Source of the DNA: a virus
Taxonomy: Duplodnaviria; Caudoviricetes
Reading direction: 5' to 3' (one strand)
Length of the DNA stretch: 64,000 nucleotides
Virus record (IMG/VR): IMGVR_UViG_3300040811_001959
The position numbers and the translations under genes are program-made. Below are positions 3,488-47,695 of the stretch, one piece after another. Position 1 is the first letter of the stretch. Every line of letters starts with the position of its first letter. Under the pieces are notes generated by a model. It did no database searches. It saw only the letters and a program-made list of their open reading frames with translations, and was not told the origin of the DNA.

Positions 3488-3733
3488 TTAAAGTGTTTCA
3501 AGATGAGTTTTTAGATCTGACAATCCTCCAATAAACTCGCCTTTTACAAAAAATTGGGGAACGTCTTGAGATTTAGTTACTTTCATCAGAGATCCAAACA
3601 TAGACTTGTCGCATGTGACGGTTGCAAATTTAATGCCTCGTTCACGCATTAATTCTGCTCCTTCTTCACATTTTTCACAAGCCGGAAAGGACTCATGCCG
3701 AAATACAACTGAACCAGTAATATCTAATTGCAT
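3488..3733 (-). CDS. Glutaredoxin
   Basis: CEKC, VPQFFVKGEFIGG. Confidence 0.8.
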   Translation of the reverse strand: MQLDITGSVVFRHESFPACEKCEEGAELMRERGIKFATVTCDKSMFGSLMKVTKSQDVPQFFVKGEFIGGLSDLKTHLETL

Positions 3734-3781
3734 ATTCCTCTTTAGGTTAAAAGTTAATAATAACAGTTTAAAATTAAATTG

Positions 3782-5449
3782 TCAAGCGTTTAAAGGTTCT
3801 TGTGCAGGTTTTTGCATGTTTGGCGCTTGCTGTTGCTGTACTTGTTTTTGCTGTCTCTGTGCCTCAGCAGCGTCTAGTTTTTCAATATCAGCAAGATTTT
3901 TAAGCAGATCACCCATTTCTACTAAATTCCGTACATTTCCGCCCATCATTCTTGTAGTAAAGGTTATTAATCTAGCTTTGCTATCTAAATCATCTACATT
4001 TGATCCAAGTTTTTTTGCCGCCCTATCTTTTAAAAGGACTCCATAAATTTCAATGGACATTGTTCCTTTTGTGTATTTCATTTGTAAATCATACAATGTT
4101 AAGGCTTCGTATAATCTTGTGTCAAAAGCTAATTCCTTGTAAGGAGTAGATTTATTTAAACCAAGGATTACCATAGTTACACCTTGTTCTAGTCGTGTCG
4201 CATGAAGTACAATGTTATTATAGATTTTTTCTACAAGTTGAAATTCTTTCTTTGTATCGTCGTTTGTTAAGACATTATTTTTTAATTCTTGTGCAACAAA
4301 GTCATATAATTTATTAAATGGTCCTTCGCTAAAATTATATTGAGCTGCAGTTTTATCTCTCTCACCTACAGGAGTTCTAAACTGGAATTCTTGTTTAAGA
4401 TGCTCACTCACTTGAATTCCTACAGTTTCATAAAAGAATTGGCAAAGGTTTTCAAAAACTCCTCCGCTTACTTGACCAAATTGTTTAACACCACCTGCTT
4501 TTAAACTCAATAATCTTGTTATGGTTCCGTCATATAAGATTTTTAAATCAACTTTAGTTGTTGTTTGATTTTCTGGGTTAGCGCCATCTGATACAACTTC
4601 TACTAAATTCTGTTTTGGATCTAACATTGCTTTATCAACAGCTACCTGCGCCCGACGACTGGTATTTGCATATTTTACTGCATTAGCAACATGCTCTTGC
4701 ATACCTTTTACTGTTTTCACTGGACAGTCAAACTCTTTTACAAGCAAGAAATCAGCAGGATTAGCCAATGGATCTTTTTCTCTCATCCAGACTTTTAAGC
4801 CTTTAGTGCTGGTTGCATTTAATGTAAGATAAAATGTTACATCGTCGTTTGCAACAGCTTTATCACCATAATTTGCAATCCTTCTTGCTTTTTTATCTTT
4901 GGCCTTACAAACTTCTTTTAGTATGTCGACAACCATAGCAGCATCAATATTCGCACCGCCCTGCTCAAATTTTGCTGTAATAGCTGCACCTAAAACAGCC
5001 TCTGCAATATCGCCTAAATTTGGAGTGAGAGACCCTGTTGCTGCATCTGTTTTGTACATTTGAGATGGAGCCATTTCTTCTCCGTCAACCCAAAAAAATG
5101 TTGAATTTTCTATGTCTTGTGCGCTTACGTTAACAGTATCCGAAGCCCACTTTGCCCATTCTTCTGCAGATAATTCTCCTCCGTCTCCCCAATTTGTAGT
5201 AATCTTATCAACTTTGCCTGCTATTACTGTAGCATTTTTTCCTGATCCTGTTTTCCATAAAAAGGTTTTTTCTTTTGCAATACCATCGGCAACTTTATAT
5301 ACATATTTCCTAGGATCTGGAGTTGTTTTAGAGATTTTTTTATCCCATTCTTTCGGAGCCATTCTGGTCGATGGTAATGTATGCACCTCGCCATCAATTT
5401 CAACTTCTTCTGCTTCAACTAACTCAACTTTAAATTCTCTAAATCGCAT
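3782..5449 (-). CDS. Large phage protein with MRFREF leader and PD-(D/E)XK-like nuclease motif
   Basis: GDIAEAVL...KVDLKILYDG...LLSLKAG pattern; TAAATA late box upstream. Confidence 0.45.
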   Translation of the reverse strand: MRFREFKVELVEAEEVEIDGEVHTLPSTRMAPKEWDKKISKTTPDPRKYVYKVADGIAKEKTFLWKTGSGKNATVIAGKVDKITTNWGDGGELSAEEWAKWASDTVNVSAQDIENSTFFWVDGEEMAPSQMYKTDAATGSLTPNLGDIAEAVLGAAITAKFEQGGANIDAAMVVDILKEVCKAKDKKARRIANYGDKAVANDDVTFYLTLNATSTKGLKVWMREKDPLANPADFLLVKEFDCPVKTVKGMQEHVANAVKYANTSRRAQVAVDKAMLDPKQNLVEVVSDGANPENQTTTKVDLKILYDGTITRLLSLKAGGVKQFGQVSGGVFENLCQFFYETVGIQVSEHLKQEFQFRTPVGERDKTAAQYNFSEGPFNKLYDFVAQELKNNVLTNDDTKKEFQLVEKIYNNIVLHATRLEQGVTMVILGLNKSTPYKELAFDTRLYEALTLYDLQMKYTKGTMSIEIYGVLLKDRAAKKLGSNVDDLDSKARLITFTTRMMGGNVRNLVEMGDLLKNLADIEKLDAAEAQRQQKQVQQQQAPNMQKPAQEPLNA

Positions 5450-5469: not shown

Positions 5470-6162
5470 TTATTCTATATTAGGGAATAACATATCCTTA
5501 CAGAATGTATCAACCATTGCTTCGTCTAATCCTAAACTCTTCATTACTTTAGGTGTGTGTGGATTTTGTTTTTGATGATTACAATAGTGATTTTGTGCAA
5601 CTTTAACACCGTCACCGTCTAAGTAATCGTCGTATTTTCCTACTTCTTCCATATACATGCGGAGGTTAACAACTGCAATGTCAATAATCTGTTGCGCTTC
5701 TTCATCTGTGTTGACATTGCCTGCTGCTAGCATCTTGTCAGTAAAAATACGTTTAGCCCAATCTGGCAACTCTCTCTGCTTGTTAGGTACAAAATCTCTT
5801 ACACTGTCAAAATATAAATTCAGCATAGGATGTATGCGATAAGCACTTGGAGAAAAATCGTGGAATGCACCAGTCATTTTGTTCTTTCCTGCGATAACAT
5901 CAAACCCGTAAATAGGACTGGGATTTGTAAGGATAGGAAATACACAAACATGCATCATCCATAACCCACGTGTATCACGTGCATCAACTACATCAATATG
6001 TGCTCTACGTACAGATTTATTAGCAAAAACACGATTAACCCAACCACTATCAGGCTGATTAAAAGCATCAAGTCCGGGTTCTTCATATTCACTGCAGGTG
6101 TCTTCAAAAATCTTTATAATGTCATTCTGACATGTTATCAGTTTGTTCCAGATAATGCTCAC
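5470..6162 (-). CDS. pcyX: Ferredoxin-dependent bilin reductase, PcyX-like
   Basis: AHIDVV (Asp at the PcyA Glu76-equivalent position), MMHVCVFP His, YGFDVI Asp, GAFHDFSP; overlaps the heme oxygenase gene. Confidence 0.82.
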   Translation of the reverse strand: MSIIWNKLITCQNDIIKIFEDTCSEYEEPGLDAFNQPDSGWVNRVFANKSVRRAHIDVVDARDTRGLWMMHVCVFPILTNPSPIYGFDVIAGKNKMTGAFHDFSPSAYRIHPMLNLYFDSVRDFVPNKQRELPDWAKRIFTDKMLAAGNVNTDEEAQQIIDIAVVNLRMYMEEVGKYDDYLDGDGVKVAQNHYCNHQKQNPHTPKVMKSLGLDEAMVDTFCKDMLFPNIE

Positions 6163-6697
6163 AGTCTAGTTCCATCATTTCTTTAAAAAGTTGGGTTGCA
6201 GAATCAAATGCGTAGCGTGCCTCTTCTGCCATATCGTCATTTAGTTTTTCTCTAATTTTATTTTTTATTGCATCTATATCACCTTTGAAATCAAACATTG
6301 ATTTTAAACCAGGAACTTTCCGTGCAATCATTTGTCCGCCGCTTAAATCCCCCATATGGAAAGTGTAAATATGTGCCATTATCTTGTCAGGGTCGTTCAT
6401 GCAAGTCTTCATATGCTCTATGTAAGCGGTAGTGCTAGGCAACGTTGGCGGAGGAGAAGATTCTTTCCAGAGATAATTAAAATCGTTTAGGATGAGCTTA
6501 TGACGTTGAACATCCGGTATGTCGTTAAACAATGAATGAACCCTGCCCATTGCTTCTAGAAGATCGTATCTTGGATGTAAATTGTAGAGGAATGTTGCAT
6601 AAAATTTAGGATGTATATTACCACTCATCATAATTTTGACAAATTCTTGTCGTTCTGCATTTTTATGATGTTCCCAGGTAAGATCTTTTAAGCTCAT
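6122..6697 (-). CDS. hemO: Heme oxygenase
   Basis: LKDLTWEHHKNAE proximal His helix, AHIYTFHMGDLSGGQMI distal helix. Confidence 0.92.
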   Translation of the reverse strand: MSLKDLTWEHHKNAERQEFVKIMMSGNIHPKFYATFLYNLHPRYDLLEAMGRVHSLFNDIPDVQRHKLILNDFNYLWKESSPPPTLPSTTAYIEHMKTCMNDPDKIMAHIYTFHMGDLSGGQMIARKVPGLKSMFDFKGDIDAIKNKIREKLNDDMAEEARYAFDSATQLFKEMMELDCEHYLEQTDNMSE

Positions 6698-16454: not shown

Positions 16455-16762
16455 AAAAAAGCAGGAGGGATAGTCCGTTCTGTTGCCCGGTGGACTATGC
16501 CGCGGAGTTCACAACGTATTAGGCTGCGAGTAATTCACCTTCACTAGCCATTGACATGTCTAATGAAGTAAATGCTCCAGGTACAAAATTTTCGTTTGCA
16601 CTTATAAAAGTTTCTTGCATTAACCGAGCTTGCTCCGGATAACTCAGCATCCCTACTTACTGCTTGTCGAATACCTGAACACCCCCGTATGTTGAAAAAT
16701 GTGTGGTGGAGGTGGCCGGAATCGAACCGGCGTCCAAGTTCAGCTTTTGTTCAGCGTCATCG
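16455..16762 (-). ncRNA. ssrA: tmRNA, circularly permuted two-piece form
   Basis: Acceptor piece ends GGTTCGATTCCGGCCACCTCCACCA (CCA end at 16704). After 17 nt the coding piece starts GGGGGTG (16686), giving a 7-bp acceptor stem with G3-U70. Tag frame 16599-16519 reads ANENFVPGAFTSLDMSMASEGELLAA-stop. Confidence 0.93.
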
Positions 16763-16765
16763 TTA

Positions 16766-16870
16766 TTAGTTTAGATCAGGTACGTGTAAAGCAATTTCTG
16801 CTGACCAAATTAATATGTATATAATAAACATGCACAATAACCAAATAGCCAAGTTTTTACCGTCACGCAT
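16766..16870 (-). CDS. 34-aa single-TM peptide (not in ORF track)
   Basis: MRDGKNLAIWLLCMFIIYILIWSAEIALHVPDLN; fills the gap between the mini-ORF and tmRNA. Confidence 0.5.
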   Translation of the reverse strand: MRDGKNLAIWLLCMFIIYILIWSAEIALHVPDLN

Positions 16871-16884
16871 CTTAATCTCTTACG

Positions 16885-16965
16885 TTAGCAGCCGCACTCT
16901 TTGCAATTAGGTTTACAGTCTTTGCAGTTGCACGGATTGCATTTACAGTTTGGATTATTACACAT
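16885..16965 (-). CDS. 26-aa metallothionein-like peptide (not in ORF track)
   Basis: MCNNPNCKCNPCNCKDCKPNCKECGC, 9 Cys; AAGGAG SD 6 nt upstream; TAAATA box at 16984-16989. Confidence 0.75.
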   Translation of the reverse strand: MCNNPNCKCNPCNCKDCKPNCKECGC

Positions 16966-16986
16966 AATTTTCTCCTTGTCAAGTAT

Positions 16987-17118
16987 TTATTTGCCTTGTC
17001 CACGATATCTTTTCCATGCCCTTCGAATTCCTTTATTCTTGGGACGGCTATAGCCACTGTTTCCTATACTAGTCCTTTTACGAAATCTTGTTCTTTTTTG
17101 TATTTTAAATTGTGCCAT
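16987..17118 (-). CDS. 43-aa highly basic peptide ending KRYRGQGK (not in ORF track)
   Basis: MAQFKIQKRTRFRKRTSIGNSGYSRPKNKGIRRAWKRYRGQGK; AGGAG SD; follows the PAAR gene. Confidence 0.75.
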   Translation of the reverse strand: MAQFKIQKRTRFRKRTSIGNSGYSRPKNKGIRRAWKRYRGQGK

Positions 17119-17125
17119 ATTTCTC

Positions 17126-17425
17126 CTAAACAGCAAAAGTAGTAGGTGAGCAAGAGTCTACGATTGTACCAGAATAGGTTCCAGAGAAAGGATCGCCTGT
17201 CCTTGCAACGGCTAAATTATCTGCATAGGTAGTACTAGCTCCACTAGAAATTTTTCCTGTATGACCGCAGTCTGCGGTTACTGTGTCAGTTACCCTTCCA
17301 ACTGCAATTCCATCTGCATAGGTGGTCGGTGAGCTACCTGTAATTTTTCCTCCTATTGCTAAAGGAGGACTGTGTGCAGAACAGACACCAAATGTTTTAT
17401 CGTCTTTCCTTGCTACTGCTGCCAT
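17126..17425 (-). CDS. PAAR-domain spike tip protein (gp5.4-like)
   Basis: AAVARKDD...CSAH...AVGRVTD...DCGH...AVARTGD. Confidence 0.85.
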   Translation of the reverse strand: MAAVARKDDKTFGVCSAHSPPLAIGGKITGSSPTTYADGIAVGRVTDTVTADCGHTGKISSGASTTYADNLAVARTGDPFSGTYSGTIVDSCSPTTFAV

Positions 17426-17427
17426 AA

Positions 17428-17604
17428 TTACATCGCATTCTTTTTGTCTTGGATTTCTTTCCTGCGATCTTTTGTTAATTTGCCTAGATCACCAAGAGCT
17501 TTCCTTGCCCTTGCTGCGGCTGCTTTTACGCCTTTGTCATCAAATGTAGCTGTTTCTGCCATATACATTGTATAGGCATGTACTATTTGTTCATGTAATG
17601 TCAT
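17428..17604 (-). CDS. Histone H1-like Hc1-family small basic protein (not in ORF track)
   Basis: MTLHEQIV...KGVKAAAARARKALGDLGKLTKDRRKEIQDKKNAM; GGAG SD. Confidence 0.65.
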   Translation of the reverse strand: MTLHEQIVHAYTMYMAETATFDDKGVKAAAARARKALGDLGKLTKDRRKEIQDKKNAM

Positions 17605-39761: not shown

Positions 39762-40384
39762 CTAAATTTTGGTCCAATAATATGAGAGATTAATATATAC
39801 TTCGTTCCTTTTGTAATAGGAGCAATCTTGTAAAAATAATAAGCAGGTAATATACATAAAGATCCCTGTGAAAGAAATTTTTGCGGAATAGGAACTGTGC
39901 TATGAAATTCAACAATTTCACCTCCTACAATATCTTCGTCATTTAAAAATAATAAAAGACTCAACTTATTATCGTAAGGTTTTTCATTGTTCCACCACTC
40001 GCAATCATGGTGCCAATTTATAAACTGGTCTTTTTCAAATTTACACAGATATAGGTTTTCTACATTCATAAGATCTAGCATAAAATTTTTATTGGCATCT
40101 GCGCCAACTTCGTTGAAAATTTTTTCTAAAAATTTATAATCTTCTGGGAAAAAATTTTTCTTTAGTGAGATAGAAAAGAAATTACCAAAATCGTTATTGA
40201 TATGATTATATCCGCCTTTTTCAAATTTGGTTATTATCTCTTTACAAGCGTTTTCACTAAAAAGTTTTTCATAAATTACAAATGGAGATTTTTTGTAATT
40301 TATAGGAGAATAATCAGTTACCTTGCCAAATATAGGAGGGTAAGGCGATCCTGGTTCTCTTGCATCTTGAATATTTACACCCAT
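39758..40384 (-). CDS. 2OG-Fe(II) oxygenase paralog, distal His replaced
   Basis: WHHD...NKLS...GGE...LPAYYFYKIAPITKGTK...IGPKFR. Confidence 0.75.
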   Translation of the reverse strand: MGVNIQDAREPGSPYPPIFGKVTDYSPINYKKSPFVIYEKLFSENACKEIITKFEKGGYNHINNDFGNFFSISLKKNFFPEDYKFLEKIFNEVGADANKNFMLDLMNVENLYLCKFEKDQFINWHHDCEWWNNEKPYDNKLSLLLFLNDEDIVGGEIVEFHSTVPIPQKFLSQGSLCILPAYYFYKIAPITKGTKYILISHIIGPKFR

Positions 40385-41718
40385 GACGGTCTCCGTATAT
40401 CTCCTTGAATATCAACAACTTTTTTTCCTGTTAATAGTTTTATAGCTCCAAACATAATTCCTAAATTATAGGCATACTCATTCCAGCAAGTTTGAGCAAA
40501 CTCTTTTCCAGTAAGAAACATACAGGACCCTTTGCATAATTGTAAAACAGGACAATGTGTACATTCGTTTCTCCAGGACCAATGCCTGCTAGATTTAATT
40601 CTAACGGCATCAAAATTGTCAAGATGACCAGCAAGGTGTTTGTTTTCCAAACCTACATTTTGGCATGTGAGTACATTACCTTTTAAATCTAGAGCTAGTT
40701 CATCGTCTTGATCCATTCCACATTTTTGCCCAAGAAACTCTGCATCTTTTTTATATAATAAAGAACCATACCATTCGTTAATTTTTTCTACAATACCTAC
40801 AACTTGTAATAATGGTTGCTTACCTTCTACTATCCCGTTGTATATTTTTTCTCTAAAATCATAAACATACTTTTGATCAAATTTTCCAGTTTTATCATTT
40901 AGTGCAGTTTTTAAATCGTAGGCTTCGACAACTCCTTCACAATTAATATTAACATCGGTTCCAAATTTATCTCTAAACCATTTTACAGTTTGATCGTAAT
41001 CATCATTTTCTTTTGTCCAAACAATTGAAAAAGCAAACCCAAGTTCTTGTTTTTTATCAGCTTCTATTAATTGTTTTACAAATTCAAACTTTTTAGGATT
41101 ATCTAATGGATCAGGCCCTCTAAGATGATATCCGGGTCCGTCATGTGACATTGCTAAATTAAATCTATATTTTTTAAAAAAATCAATTTTTTCTTGTGTT
41201 AACAAACTTCCATTTGTAACCATCGTAAATTCAATATCTTCATCACATTTTTCTTTTAAAAAAGGTACTAATTTTTTTATTTTTTTCCAATAAAGTAGCG
41301 GCTCGCCGCCCCAAAGTTCCACCATTGTACAAGATGATAAATCAATACTATTTTCTAAATTATGCATAAAAACATCTGTATCATTTTCATCTGTACGAGA
41401 TGCAGCAGGAACAAAAGATGCTTGACTACAATATTCACATTTATAATTACATTTTAATCCCAACTGAATTTTAATTCTACTTGGGTTTTTTAATTTTTTT
41501 CCAGGATTAAAAAAAGGATGAATAGGATTTACATTAGTTTGATGAGGATAATCTTTAGGACTATATACATACATTTCATTGATTTTTTCAATACCGATTG
41601 GATTTTTTTCATATAAATTTTGACCGTCGGCATTAGTAAGTAAACTTTTATATGGATAATAAAAAAATTCTTCCCCGTCGTCGCAAATTAGTGTATAAAC
41701 AAGATTTTTATTTTTCAT
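40375..41718 (-). CDS. Radical SAM/SPASM-domain enzyme
   Basis: CNYKCEYC, WGGEPL, TNGS, SHDG; KCGM...TCQ...CTHCPVLQLCKGSC SPASM-type cysteines. Confidence 0.92.
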   Translation of the reverse strand: MKNKNLVYTLICDDGEEFFYYPYKSLLTNADGQNLYEKNPIGIEKINEMYVYSPKDYPHQTNVNPIHPFFNPGKKLKNPSRIKIQLGLKCNYKCEYCSQASFVPAASRTDENDTDVFMHNLENSIDLSSCTMVELWGGEPLLYWKKIKKLVPFLKEKCDEDIEFTMVTNGSLLTQEKIDFFKKYRFNLAMSHDGPGYHLRGPDPLDNPKKFEFVKQLIEADKKQELGFAFSIVWTKENDDYDQTVKWFRDKFGTDVNINCEGVVEAYDLKTALNDKTGKFDQKYVYDFREKIYNGIVEGKQPLLQVVGIVEKINEWYGSLLYKKDAEFLGQKCGMDQDDELALDLKGNVLTCQNVGLENKHLAGHLDNFDAVRIKSSRHWSWRNECTHCPVLQLCKGSCMFLTGKEFAQTCWNEYAYNLGIMFGAIKLLTGKKVVDIQGDIRRPSWV

Positions 41719-46987: not shown

Positions 46988-47695
46988 TTATAGGTTTTCT
47001 ATTTTTTCTAATAAAATCGGAATTTGTTCAATGTAAATTAAACCCTTTAATTTATTTCCGTCTTTTTCTAGAATATTTATTAGGTCTGGTAAAATATTTT
47101 CTGCCTCTTGAGCAAATTGATCTAGCAAAACTTTTTCATCGTCAGTAATATCATTGTCATTTTCTATCAAACTTTCAATATCAAGCCCTTTATCTATATA
47201 ATCTATTATAATCTCTTGTAAAGATTTTAATTTTTCTACGCTAAGTTGATCTATAATAAATCCATCGGAGTCTTTTCCTAAATTAAATGAACATTTACAT
47301 TTACCACACCAACATTTACAAGCACATTTGCATTTACATTGGCACTTGCATGCACATTTGCATTTACATTGGCACTTGCATGCACAAAGGCACTTGCACT
47401 TACACTTGCACTTGCATTTGCATTTGCACTGGCACTTGCATTTGCAATTGCAGTTGGTTGTATATTCTATCCTTAGTGTACCTTCTGATCCTGCTACATT
47501 ATTCCGTATTTGATAAATTTTGTTAATAGCAGCGCCGGTAAATGGACCATTGCTAGGAGTTGGAACTAGAGACACTCCATTTAATAACCAACTTGGACTC
47601 ACAAAAGAAGCAGGAATAGTTGTAGGATCTACATTACTAATATCAATTTTATCTGCCGGATCACCTACAACGGTATTTCCAATTTTTAATGCCAT
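46988..47695 (-). CDS. Protein with central alternating Cys-Xaa tract; candidate radical SAM substrate
   Basis: Residues 82-135 contain 27 Cys; acidic C-terminal domain; GAGG SD and TAAATA box upstream. Confidence 0.8.
   Translation of the reverse strand: MALKIGNTVVGDPADKIDISNVDPTTIPASFVSPSWLLNGVSLVPTPSNGPFTGAAINKIYQIRNNVAGSEGTLRIEYTTNCNCKCKCQCKCKCKCKCKCKCLCACKCQCKCKCACKCQCKCKCACKCWCGKCKCSFNLGKDSDGFIIDQLSVEKLKSLQEIIIDYIDKGLDIESLIENDNDITDDEKVLLDQFAQEAENILPDLINILEKDGNKLKGLIYIEQIPILLEKIENL
47291..47452 (-). repeat. Cys-Xaa codon repeat including a 30-bp tandem duplication (47322-47386)
   Basis: TGY-NNN periodicity; CACKCQCKCK unit duplicated exactly. Confidence 0.95.

Follow-up and report, generated by a model that had tools for sequence, protein, structure and literature searches.

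A conserved cysteine-rich mini-gene of an uncultured marine T4-like phage encodes a putative metallothionein-like peptide probably related to an alphaproteobacterial family

A 26-codon cysteine-rich mini-gene was identified on the minus strand of the phage DNA under study (a stretch of 64,000 nt, hereafter the window), and the favored reading, to which a probability of about 0.6 was assigned, is that of a genuine phage gene for a mini-metallothionein that is related to bacterial peptides and expressed late in infection. The mini-gene occupied positions 16885..16965 (stop codon counted in; ATG at 16965-16963 and TAA at 16887-16885, as read from the sequence), and its product was MCNNPNCKCNPCNCKDCKPNCKECGC. 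Cysteines made up 9 of the 26 residues (35%) and were spaced as C-x4-C-x-C-x2-C-x-C-x2-C-x3-C-x2-C-x-C, while the other positions were occupied by Asn, Lys, Pro, Asp, Glu, and Gly; apart from Met1, the peptide was free of aromatic, aliphatic, and His residues. A Shine–Dalgarno sequence AAGGAG (16972..16977, minus strand), located 6 nt 5′ of the ATG, was invariant across all relatives. Further upstream lay the sequence TAAATA (16989-16984), the first three bases of which are the stop codon of a 43-aa basic ORF. The original prediction had described an unannotated ORF with nine Cys in 26 residues, CxC and CxxC spacing, and no aromatics, preceded by a strong AAGGAG and by TAAATA over the upstream stop codon, and its coordinates, translation, and both signals agreed with those found here. 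The exact peptide was not found in a collection of 15 billion proteins and was thus uncalled by any gene caller represented there, in line with its unannotated status. Among the 918 six-frame ORFs of the window (≥18 aa), the mini-gene was the only one with more than 21% Cys, and 50 shuffles of the window yielded zero ORFs with ≥7 Cys and ≥30% Cys. It was present in a single copy in the 117.6-kb IMG/VR record containing the window.

The order on the gene strand was as follows: genes of the ribonucleotide reductase small subunit, glutaredoxin, a phrog_527 protein, an Hc1-like protein, and a PAAR protein, then the basic ORF, the cysteine mini-gene, a 34-aa hydrophobic mini-ORF, and a permuted tmRNA, after which genes of a peptidoglycan-binding protein and a cell-wall hydrolase were located. 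The PAAR-repeat spike-tip protein gene (99 aa; 17126..17425, minus strand; PF05488, 38.2 bits; phrog_281) ended 8 nt upstream of the basic ORF. The latter (43 aa, very basic, ending in WKRYRGQGK; 16987..17118, minus strand) had 202 relatives in IMG/VR and no match in Pfam or PHROG, and it may be a conserved mini-protein of the virion module that has so far escaped recognition in marine T4-like phages. It should be noted that the basic ORF and the mini-gene share a reading frame (TAA, 7 sense codons, ATG); read-through of the stop codon would fuse them, and the shared frame may be a coincidence. A virion protein of the window was no more than 45% identical to marine T4-like cyanophage proteins, which points to an uncultured marine T4-like myovirus, and near-identical DNA was found in estuary, seawater, and salt-marsh samples.

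Relatives were gathered via the neighboring basic ORF, i.e., without selecting on the cysteine ORF (80 kept of 202 IMG/VR matches); the searches drew on a TTG-extended ORF of 49 aa and on DNA patterns. Among the 80 loci kept, the mini-ORF was found at the same place in all 17 close-clade loci having enough downstream DNA and was missing from 60 more distant loci, in many of which the basic ORF directly preceded an ORF of ~138 aa, by appearance presumably a gp25-type baseplate gene. The relatives contained 12 unique mini-gene coding sequences with 20 variable sites, 14 of which were third codon positions (hand count), i.e., about twice the one-third expectation; when only the nine full-length forms were considered, third positions accounted for 6 of 9 variable sites (P = 0.04). 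TGC/TGT swaps occurred at six of the nine Cys codons, and the sole Cys loss was C26Y in one lineage, the other amino acid variants in the 12 sequences being K8N, N10D, N13T, D16P, and K22E. The stop codon alternated between TAA and TAG, and two lineages carried a 21-nt in-frame deletion, after which the shortened peptide ended in ...CKDCKC. As judged from the coding sequences, this pattern of variation is that of purifying selection on a protein. The conservation beside the tmRNA anticipated for related phages was thus observed in every close locus, with the Cys codons preserved, and, taken together with the third-position bias, the in-frame deletion, and the bacterial homologues described below, it upholds the claim of a conserved mini-gene that behaves as a translated one; the gene is very probably real.

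The mini-gene was covered by contigs of four metatranscriptomes from at least three studies, where contaminating DNA is possible, and one contig of 816 nt extended from the basic ORF to the tmRNA, with the mini-gene and the hydrophobic ORF in between. Contigs of this kind cannot reveal transcript ends, strand, or translation. The PAAR gene was uncovered in three metatranscriptome runs, such a coverage gap being no evidence for a transcript boundary. In a collection of phage isolates, zero matches were obtained by tblastn with the peptide and the PAAR protein or by blastn with the region; the low-complexity filter probably masks the peptide in such a search.

Further evidence came from bacteria. 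The pattern C-x-C-x-P-C-x-C-K-x-C was run on 185,579 species genomes and matched at least 120 stretches; the matches listed included at least 25 alphaproteobacterial ORFs of 24–40 aa, mostly from Sphingomonadales, which were preceded by AGGAG-type ribosome sites and encoded peptides ending in ...GC[RK]C[NDK]PCTCKNC[NSGA]C. Cultured members were found in Sphingomonas agri (L147), S. alba (L197), and S. tabacisoli (L217). The C-terminal core common to the phage and bacterial peptides was C-x-C-[ND]-P-C-[TN]-C-K-x-C-x-C followed by the stop codon, and the short phage variants terminated exactly like the bacterial peptides. Of the last 18 residues of bacterial peptide L145 (MADSKQPKAEEKKACTNPNCKCDPCTCKECKC), 15 were identical to the commonest phage variant, the C-x-N-P-N-C lead-in included, and 8 of these 15 identities fell at positions outside the search pattern (alignment A1). 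In this alignment of 12 sequences, C7, C9, P11, C12, C14, K15, C17, and the final Cys were invariant. None of ten family members was present in the 15-billion-protein collection, so that the family is essentially unannotated; a 40-aa member used as a query of that collection retrieved two unnamed proteins, and a search of the ESM Atlas with L145 returned unnamed clusters only, all scoring below 0.9.

Among the matches listed, 24 of 25 bacterial loci carried TTGA[CT]T together with CCGTAC-N4-GTACGG 130–160 nt before the stop codon of the gene, and a divergent MerR-family gene adjoined the mini-gene in 22 of 25. The half-sites coincided with those of the symmetrical MerR-binding sequence CCGTACATGAGTACGG in the Tn501/Tn21 mer promoter, which has an abnormally long 19-bp spacer (PMC11049809). 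In L147, where the mini-gene lay at 5773-5859 (minus strand) and the regulator at about 5940-6319 (plus strand), the regulator matched Pfam MerR_1 and MerR-DNA-bind, and its NCBIfam scores were 110 bits for MerR, 92 for CueR, and 90 for ZntR, all below the equivalog cut-offs. The bacterial regulators ended in C-x7-C-P-I-L and had no third Cys, which we take to be the arrangement of a CueR-type sensor of monovalent ions (Cu(I), Ag(I), Au(I)) rather than of Zn, and which should be read as a lead only. A GC-rich hairpin followed directly 3′ of the bacterial mini-genes, with no operon. In relation to the Tn501/Tn21 MerR–Pmer system, the bacterial promoters thus carried the same half-sites after a TTGACT-type −35 element, whereas the regulator scored under the equivalog cut-off (110 vs. 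150.85 bits) and had no third Cys; mer transport or reductase genes were not seen in the two bacterial loci listed.

This switch had no counterpart at the phage copy. The bacterial genes were associated with a Pmer-like operator and a divergent MerR sensor, whereas the phage gene was accompanied by neither, and no MerR operator was present within 2 mismatches anywhere in the window; where the bacteria carried a Pmer-like promoter, the phage gene had a late-promoter-like motif. The phage peptide also differed in having no N-terminal non-Cys lead-in, and most phage variants contained a 7-residue insertion (PNCKECG) with two extra Cys. On sequence grounds, the phage peptide is probably homologous to this MerR-controlled alphaproteobacterial family; the shared core is short and of low complexity, and convergence may have contributed to the resemblance.

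When compared with the operational definition of metallothioneins (PMC7558416, section 4.3), the phage peptide corresponded to it in size (26 residues, far below 10 kDa), in its 9 of 26 Cys arranged in CxC and CxxC arrays, and in containing no aromatics. Metallothioneins also bind several metal ions as metal–thiolate clusters and are usually, though not necessarily, expressed in response to metal. Meanwhile, it gave no metallothionein match in Pfam or NCBIfam, even at E up to 10, no match in PHROG, and none in PDB, 1JJD included; it belongs to no curated metallothionein family. Near-matches in PDB to a conotoxin (E 0.37) and reelin (E 1.5) were dismissed as noise, and a secreted disulfide-rich, toxin- or defensin-like peptide was ruled out, as there was no signal peptide and the bacterial context was that of metal sensing. 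There was no metal gene beside the phage copy, and the link to metal is inherited from the bacterial relatives rather than visible in the phage itself. The label metallothionein-like, which had been proposed from composition, is nevertheless the best one and now goes beyond composition, because homologous ~30-aa peptides of Alphaproteobacteria stand behind MerR-type metal-responsive promoters; on balance, the phage peptide is taken to be metallothionein-like and putatively metal-binding, with somewhat less certainty than its homology to the bacterial family.

The arrangement resembles that of SmtB–SmtA and BmtA (PF02069; 1JJD), in which a gene for a small Cys-rich, cytoplasmic, metal-binding protein is paired with a divergent metal sensor. 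The SmtA and BmtA genes are small enough for annotation to miss, and BmtA (~55 aa) has a zinc-finger fold (SmtA residues 7–38), a conserved aromatic Y31, A37, and His ligands (PMC3323870). In contrast, the phage peptide had no aromatic and no His residue, was shorter than the zinc-finger fold, and gave no PF02069 match; the sensor family also differed, being ArsR/SmtB for SmtA and MerR for the bacterial mini-peptides, with the same divergent-sensor logic. Among bacterial Cu-thioneins of very small size, the nearest precedent is MymT, the copper metallothionein of Mycobacterium tuberculosis, which, compared by description rather than by sequence, is about twice as long as the phage peptide and is cellular, not viral. 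The Neurospora crassa Cu-metallothionein of 25–26 aa falls in the size class of the phage peptide, and the β-domain of mammalian metallothionein, which holds three divalent or about six monovalent ions, equals it in its 9 Cys. Both have CxC and CxxC spacing with Lys between the Cys, like the phage peptide; both are eukaryotic, and neither shows demonstrable homology to it.

The cysteines could also serve a purpose other than direct metal binding. The peptide might be a substrate or partner of the phage's radical SAM enzyme, its Cys being enzymatically cross-linked in a ranthipeptide-like manner. The window does encode a Radical_SAM/Fer4_12 enzyme (40375-41718, minus strand) as well as a ladder-type (CK)n protein in which 27 Cys alternate with other residues (46988-47695, minus strand), both 23–30 kb from the mini-gene, so that this genome does contain a cysteine-modifying system. 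The peptide resembles the ladder protein in its C, K, and N composition, and a close relative with the mini-gene also has a radical SAM enzyme (63% identity, about 26 kb off). However, the peptide starts with Met-Cys and an in-frame stop lies 7 codons upstream, so there is no leader peptide of the kind that precedes the Cys-rich core in ranthipeptide precursors such as SCIFF; the nearest radical SAM gene is 23 kb from the mini-gene rather than adjacent; the bacterial homologues are flanked by MerR sensors, not by radical SAM genes; and the co-occurrence of enzyme and mini-gene is what the synteny of close relatives gives anyway. The radical SAM gene was missing from the 94-kb record of L002, but as this record is a fragment, the absence carries no weight. 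Enzymatic cross-linking is thus considered unlikely, and the reading of the product as a metal-binding peptide is preferred.

A degenerate DNA pattern for C-x-C-x-P-C-x-C-K-x-C run on phage and IMG/VR sequences revealed further forms of the motif. The more distant relative L109, which shares the NrdA, NrdB, Grx, phrog_527, and PAAR neighborhood, contained two Cys-rich ORFs in tandem between the PAAR gene and the permuted tmRNA: a 51-aa ORF (about 3587-3739, minus strand; 10 Cys, then a basic tail) behind ATAAATACTTG, and a 19-aa homologue of the mini-gene, MCNNPNCKCNPCTCKPCKC (3518-3574, minus strand), which ended 5 nt before the tmRNA. A mini-ORF in L106 encoded MNNCECNPCTCKDCSCTNCTC, and five contigs carried a mini-ORF MEKC[ND]CGC[ND]CNPCTCKDCKCKEK. 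In L127, another IMG/VR contig, the start codon of a 15-aa ORF, MCKCDPCKCKPCKCK (3747-3791, plus strand), overlapped the stop codon of IscU (NifU_N, E 4e-51), which suggests a Cys-rich peptide translationally coupled to an Fe-S scaffold. The sequence C-x-C-x-P-C-x-C-K also formed the C-terminal tail of larger proteins in L004/L007 and L112/L113 (L004 4003-4425; L112 2545-2835), and the motif proteins of L094 (1080-1283) and L104 (2933-3259) had an N-terminal hydrophobic stretch, which we assume from its look to be a signal or lipoprotein leader. Thus, fused forms of the motif appear to exist, possibly including exported ones.

These forms bear on the possibility that the peptide, rather than buffering metal in general, serves one specific phage protein (the PAAR tip or the 43-aa basic protein) as a small structural element or chaperone stabilised by zinc or another metal. 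Such a role would agree with the tails on larger phage proteins, with the late-gene-like promoter, and with the position of the mini-gene, which is constant after PAAR and the basic ORF in the clade and follows PAAR in L109. Against it stand the more divergent basic-ORF and PAAR relatives, which occur without the mini-gene, and the bacterial homologues, which are stand-alone genes with sensors; a dedicated partner function is therefore regarded as unlikely, to the same degree as the radical SAM substrate, and a general metal-binding role remains preferred.

The constant position just upstream of the permuted tmRNA (16519..16766, minus strand; Rfam RF04321, 88.4 bits against a gathering score of 47, E 1.2e-16), which lies 118 nt away in the window but just 5 nt away in L109, was considered separately. 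This tmRNA was detected by Rfam and not by ARAGORN. Between it and the mini-gene lies the hydrophobic mini-ORF MRDGKNLAIWLLCMFIIYILIWSAEIALHVPDLN (MRDGKNLAIWLLCMF...; 16766..16870, minus strand), which begins 14 nt past the mini-gene stop codon and terminates at the first tmRNA base. Members of the clade retained it, and synonymous double changes (TTG to CTA) were seen among them, whereas it was missing in L109; its Shine–Dalgarno sequence was AAGAG in the window vs. AGGAG in the relatives. Given this proximity, the mini-gene might act as a regulatory upstream ORF, in which the progress of ribosomes over the nine Cys codons, dependent on Cys-tRNA supply, would adjust expression of the membrane mini-ORF as well as how the tmRNA is processed or how much of it is present. 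In attenuation leader peptides, a short ORF rich in one amino acid precedes alternative hairpins that govern an operon further on; the phage ORF was followed by another mini-ORF and then the tmRNA. However, non-Cys residues were conserved too and the variation was mostly synonymous, the bacterial homologues were directly followed by GC-rich hairpins with no operons, and similar mini-ORFs occurred in other phage contexts without a tmRNA, which makes this kind of regulation very unlikely in comparison with a functional peptide product.

As for expression, the original prediction had given the mini-gene its own late promoter. The motif ATAAATA (16984..16990, minus strand), which is T4-type late-promoter-like and overlaps the stop codon of the basic ORF, was represented in the window by 25 copies on the gene strand and 10 on the opposite strand. 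About 12 of the gene-strand copies lay 22–37 nt before a Shine–Dalgarno sequence and start codon, with the mini-gene copy at +27, and L109 retained ATAAATACTTG in truly intergenic DNA. A second candidate, a sigma-70-like promoter (TTGACA, 17 nt, TG-n-AATAAT; 16954..16982, minus strand; 11/12 positions), overlapped the Shine–Dalgarno sequence and first codons of the mini-gene; such matches were no commoner in the window than in shuffles, and this one was not conserved in L109. Since transcription from this promoter would begin within the mini-gene, the resulting RNA would contain just the hydrophobic ORF and the tmRNA. The prediction of a late promoter thus gained support from a geometry like that of other gene starts and from the retention of the motif in non-coding DNA of L109, but was weakened by the sigma-70-like promoter overlapping the ORF start, so that ATAAATA is a plausible late promoter of the mini-gene. 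Owing to this geometry and to the PAAR gene lying just 8 nt plus one small ORF upstream, expression together with the late virion genes appears likeliest. Should both promoters be real, tmRNA synthesis would take place in the early as well as the late phase, but that of the peptide in the late phase alone, which is speculative.

It is extremely unlikely that the conserved DNA is just a tmRNA promoter or leader with an incidental ORF, or that the cysteine part arises solely when the stop codon of the basic ORF is read through: although the sigma-70-like match (with TG) overlaps the start codon and the two ORFs share a frame, variation is biased to third positions and Cys codons are preserved along the entire mini-ORF, the mini-gene has its own strong Shine–Dalgarno sequence and is homologous to independent bacterial genes, the promoter match is missing in L109, and a shared frame has a 1-in-3 chance.

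According to the preferred explanation, the product would be a cytoplasmic peptide of 25–26 residues which, having no hydrophobic core, would fold only around metal ions to form a metal–thiolate cluster, i.e., a miniature metallothionein. The phage gene would be descended from, or share ancestry with, the alphaproteobacterial family of ~30-aa peptides switched by MerR/Pmer, the sensor and operator having been lost in the phage. It would be read from phage transcripts, probably from the ATAAATA 27 nt before the ATG and also by read-through from PAAR and the basic ORF, and the peptide would be made late in infection whatever the metal status, alongside the small membrane peptide and the phage tmRNA. 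By analogy with known metallothioneins (PMC7558416), nine thiolates might accommodate about three ions if divalent, or four to six if monovalent. The metal would be a thiophilic one, putatively Cu(I), which is favored by the CueR-like C-x7-C-P-I-L loop of the bacterial sensors without a third Cys. The benefit for the phage could be metal sequestered or held during the manufacture of cysteine-rich virion parts. The buffering of Zn/Cu or of redox state in late infection, put forward in the original prediction, is a conjectural role, the bacterial sensors looking more like sensors of monovalent metals than of Zn. A bolder version is rather unlikely: a mini-metallothionein under MerR control in the host would have been taken up by phages of marine Alphaproteobacteria, deprived of its metal switch, and brought under late control beside the PAAR gene, to serve as a dedicated metal donor or guard for the unusually Cys-rich parts of the virion, namely, the PAAR tip and the 27-Cys fibre. 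If this capture and virion-assembly reading were true, it would be the first metallothionein of a virus of bacteria, with a role in assembly rather than detoxification.

Metallothioneins are known from eukaryotes and a few bacterial families, and full-text literature searches found no phage-encoded metallothionein. If the peptide binds metal, it would follow that phages alter the host's supply of thiophilic metals in late infection, and that a stress gene of the host can exchange its metal switch for a developmental promoter of the phage. The analysis also brought to light an unannotated alphaproteobacterial family of ~30-aa peptides behind Pmer-like promoters, cultured Sphingomonas type strains included, in which the smallest metallothionein-like peptides of bacteria can be put directly to the test. 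Gene callers, in turn, miss much metal biology below about 40 codons.

It should also be noted that the gene adjoining PAAR on its upstream side encodes a 58-aa Hc1-family protein (17428-17604, minus strand; PF07432, chlamydial histone H1-like, E 1e-10). An Hc1-like gene adjoins PAAR in L002 as well, and a nucleoid protein of this type is unusual for a phage.
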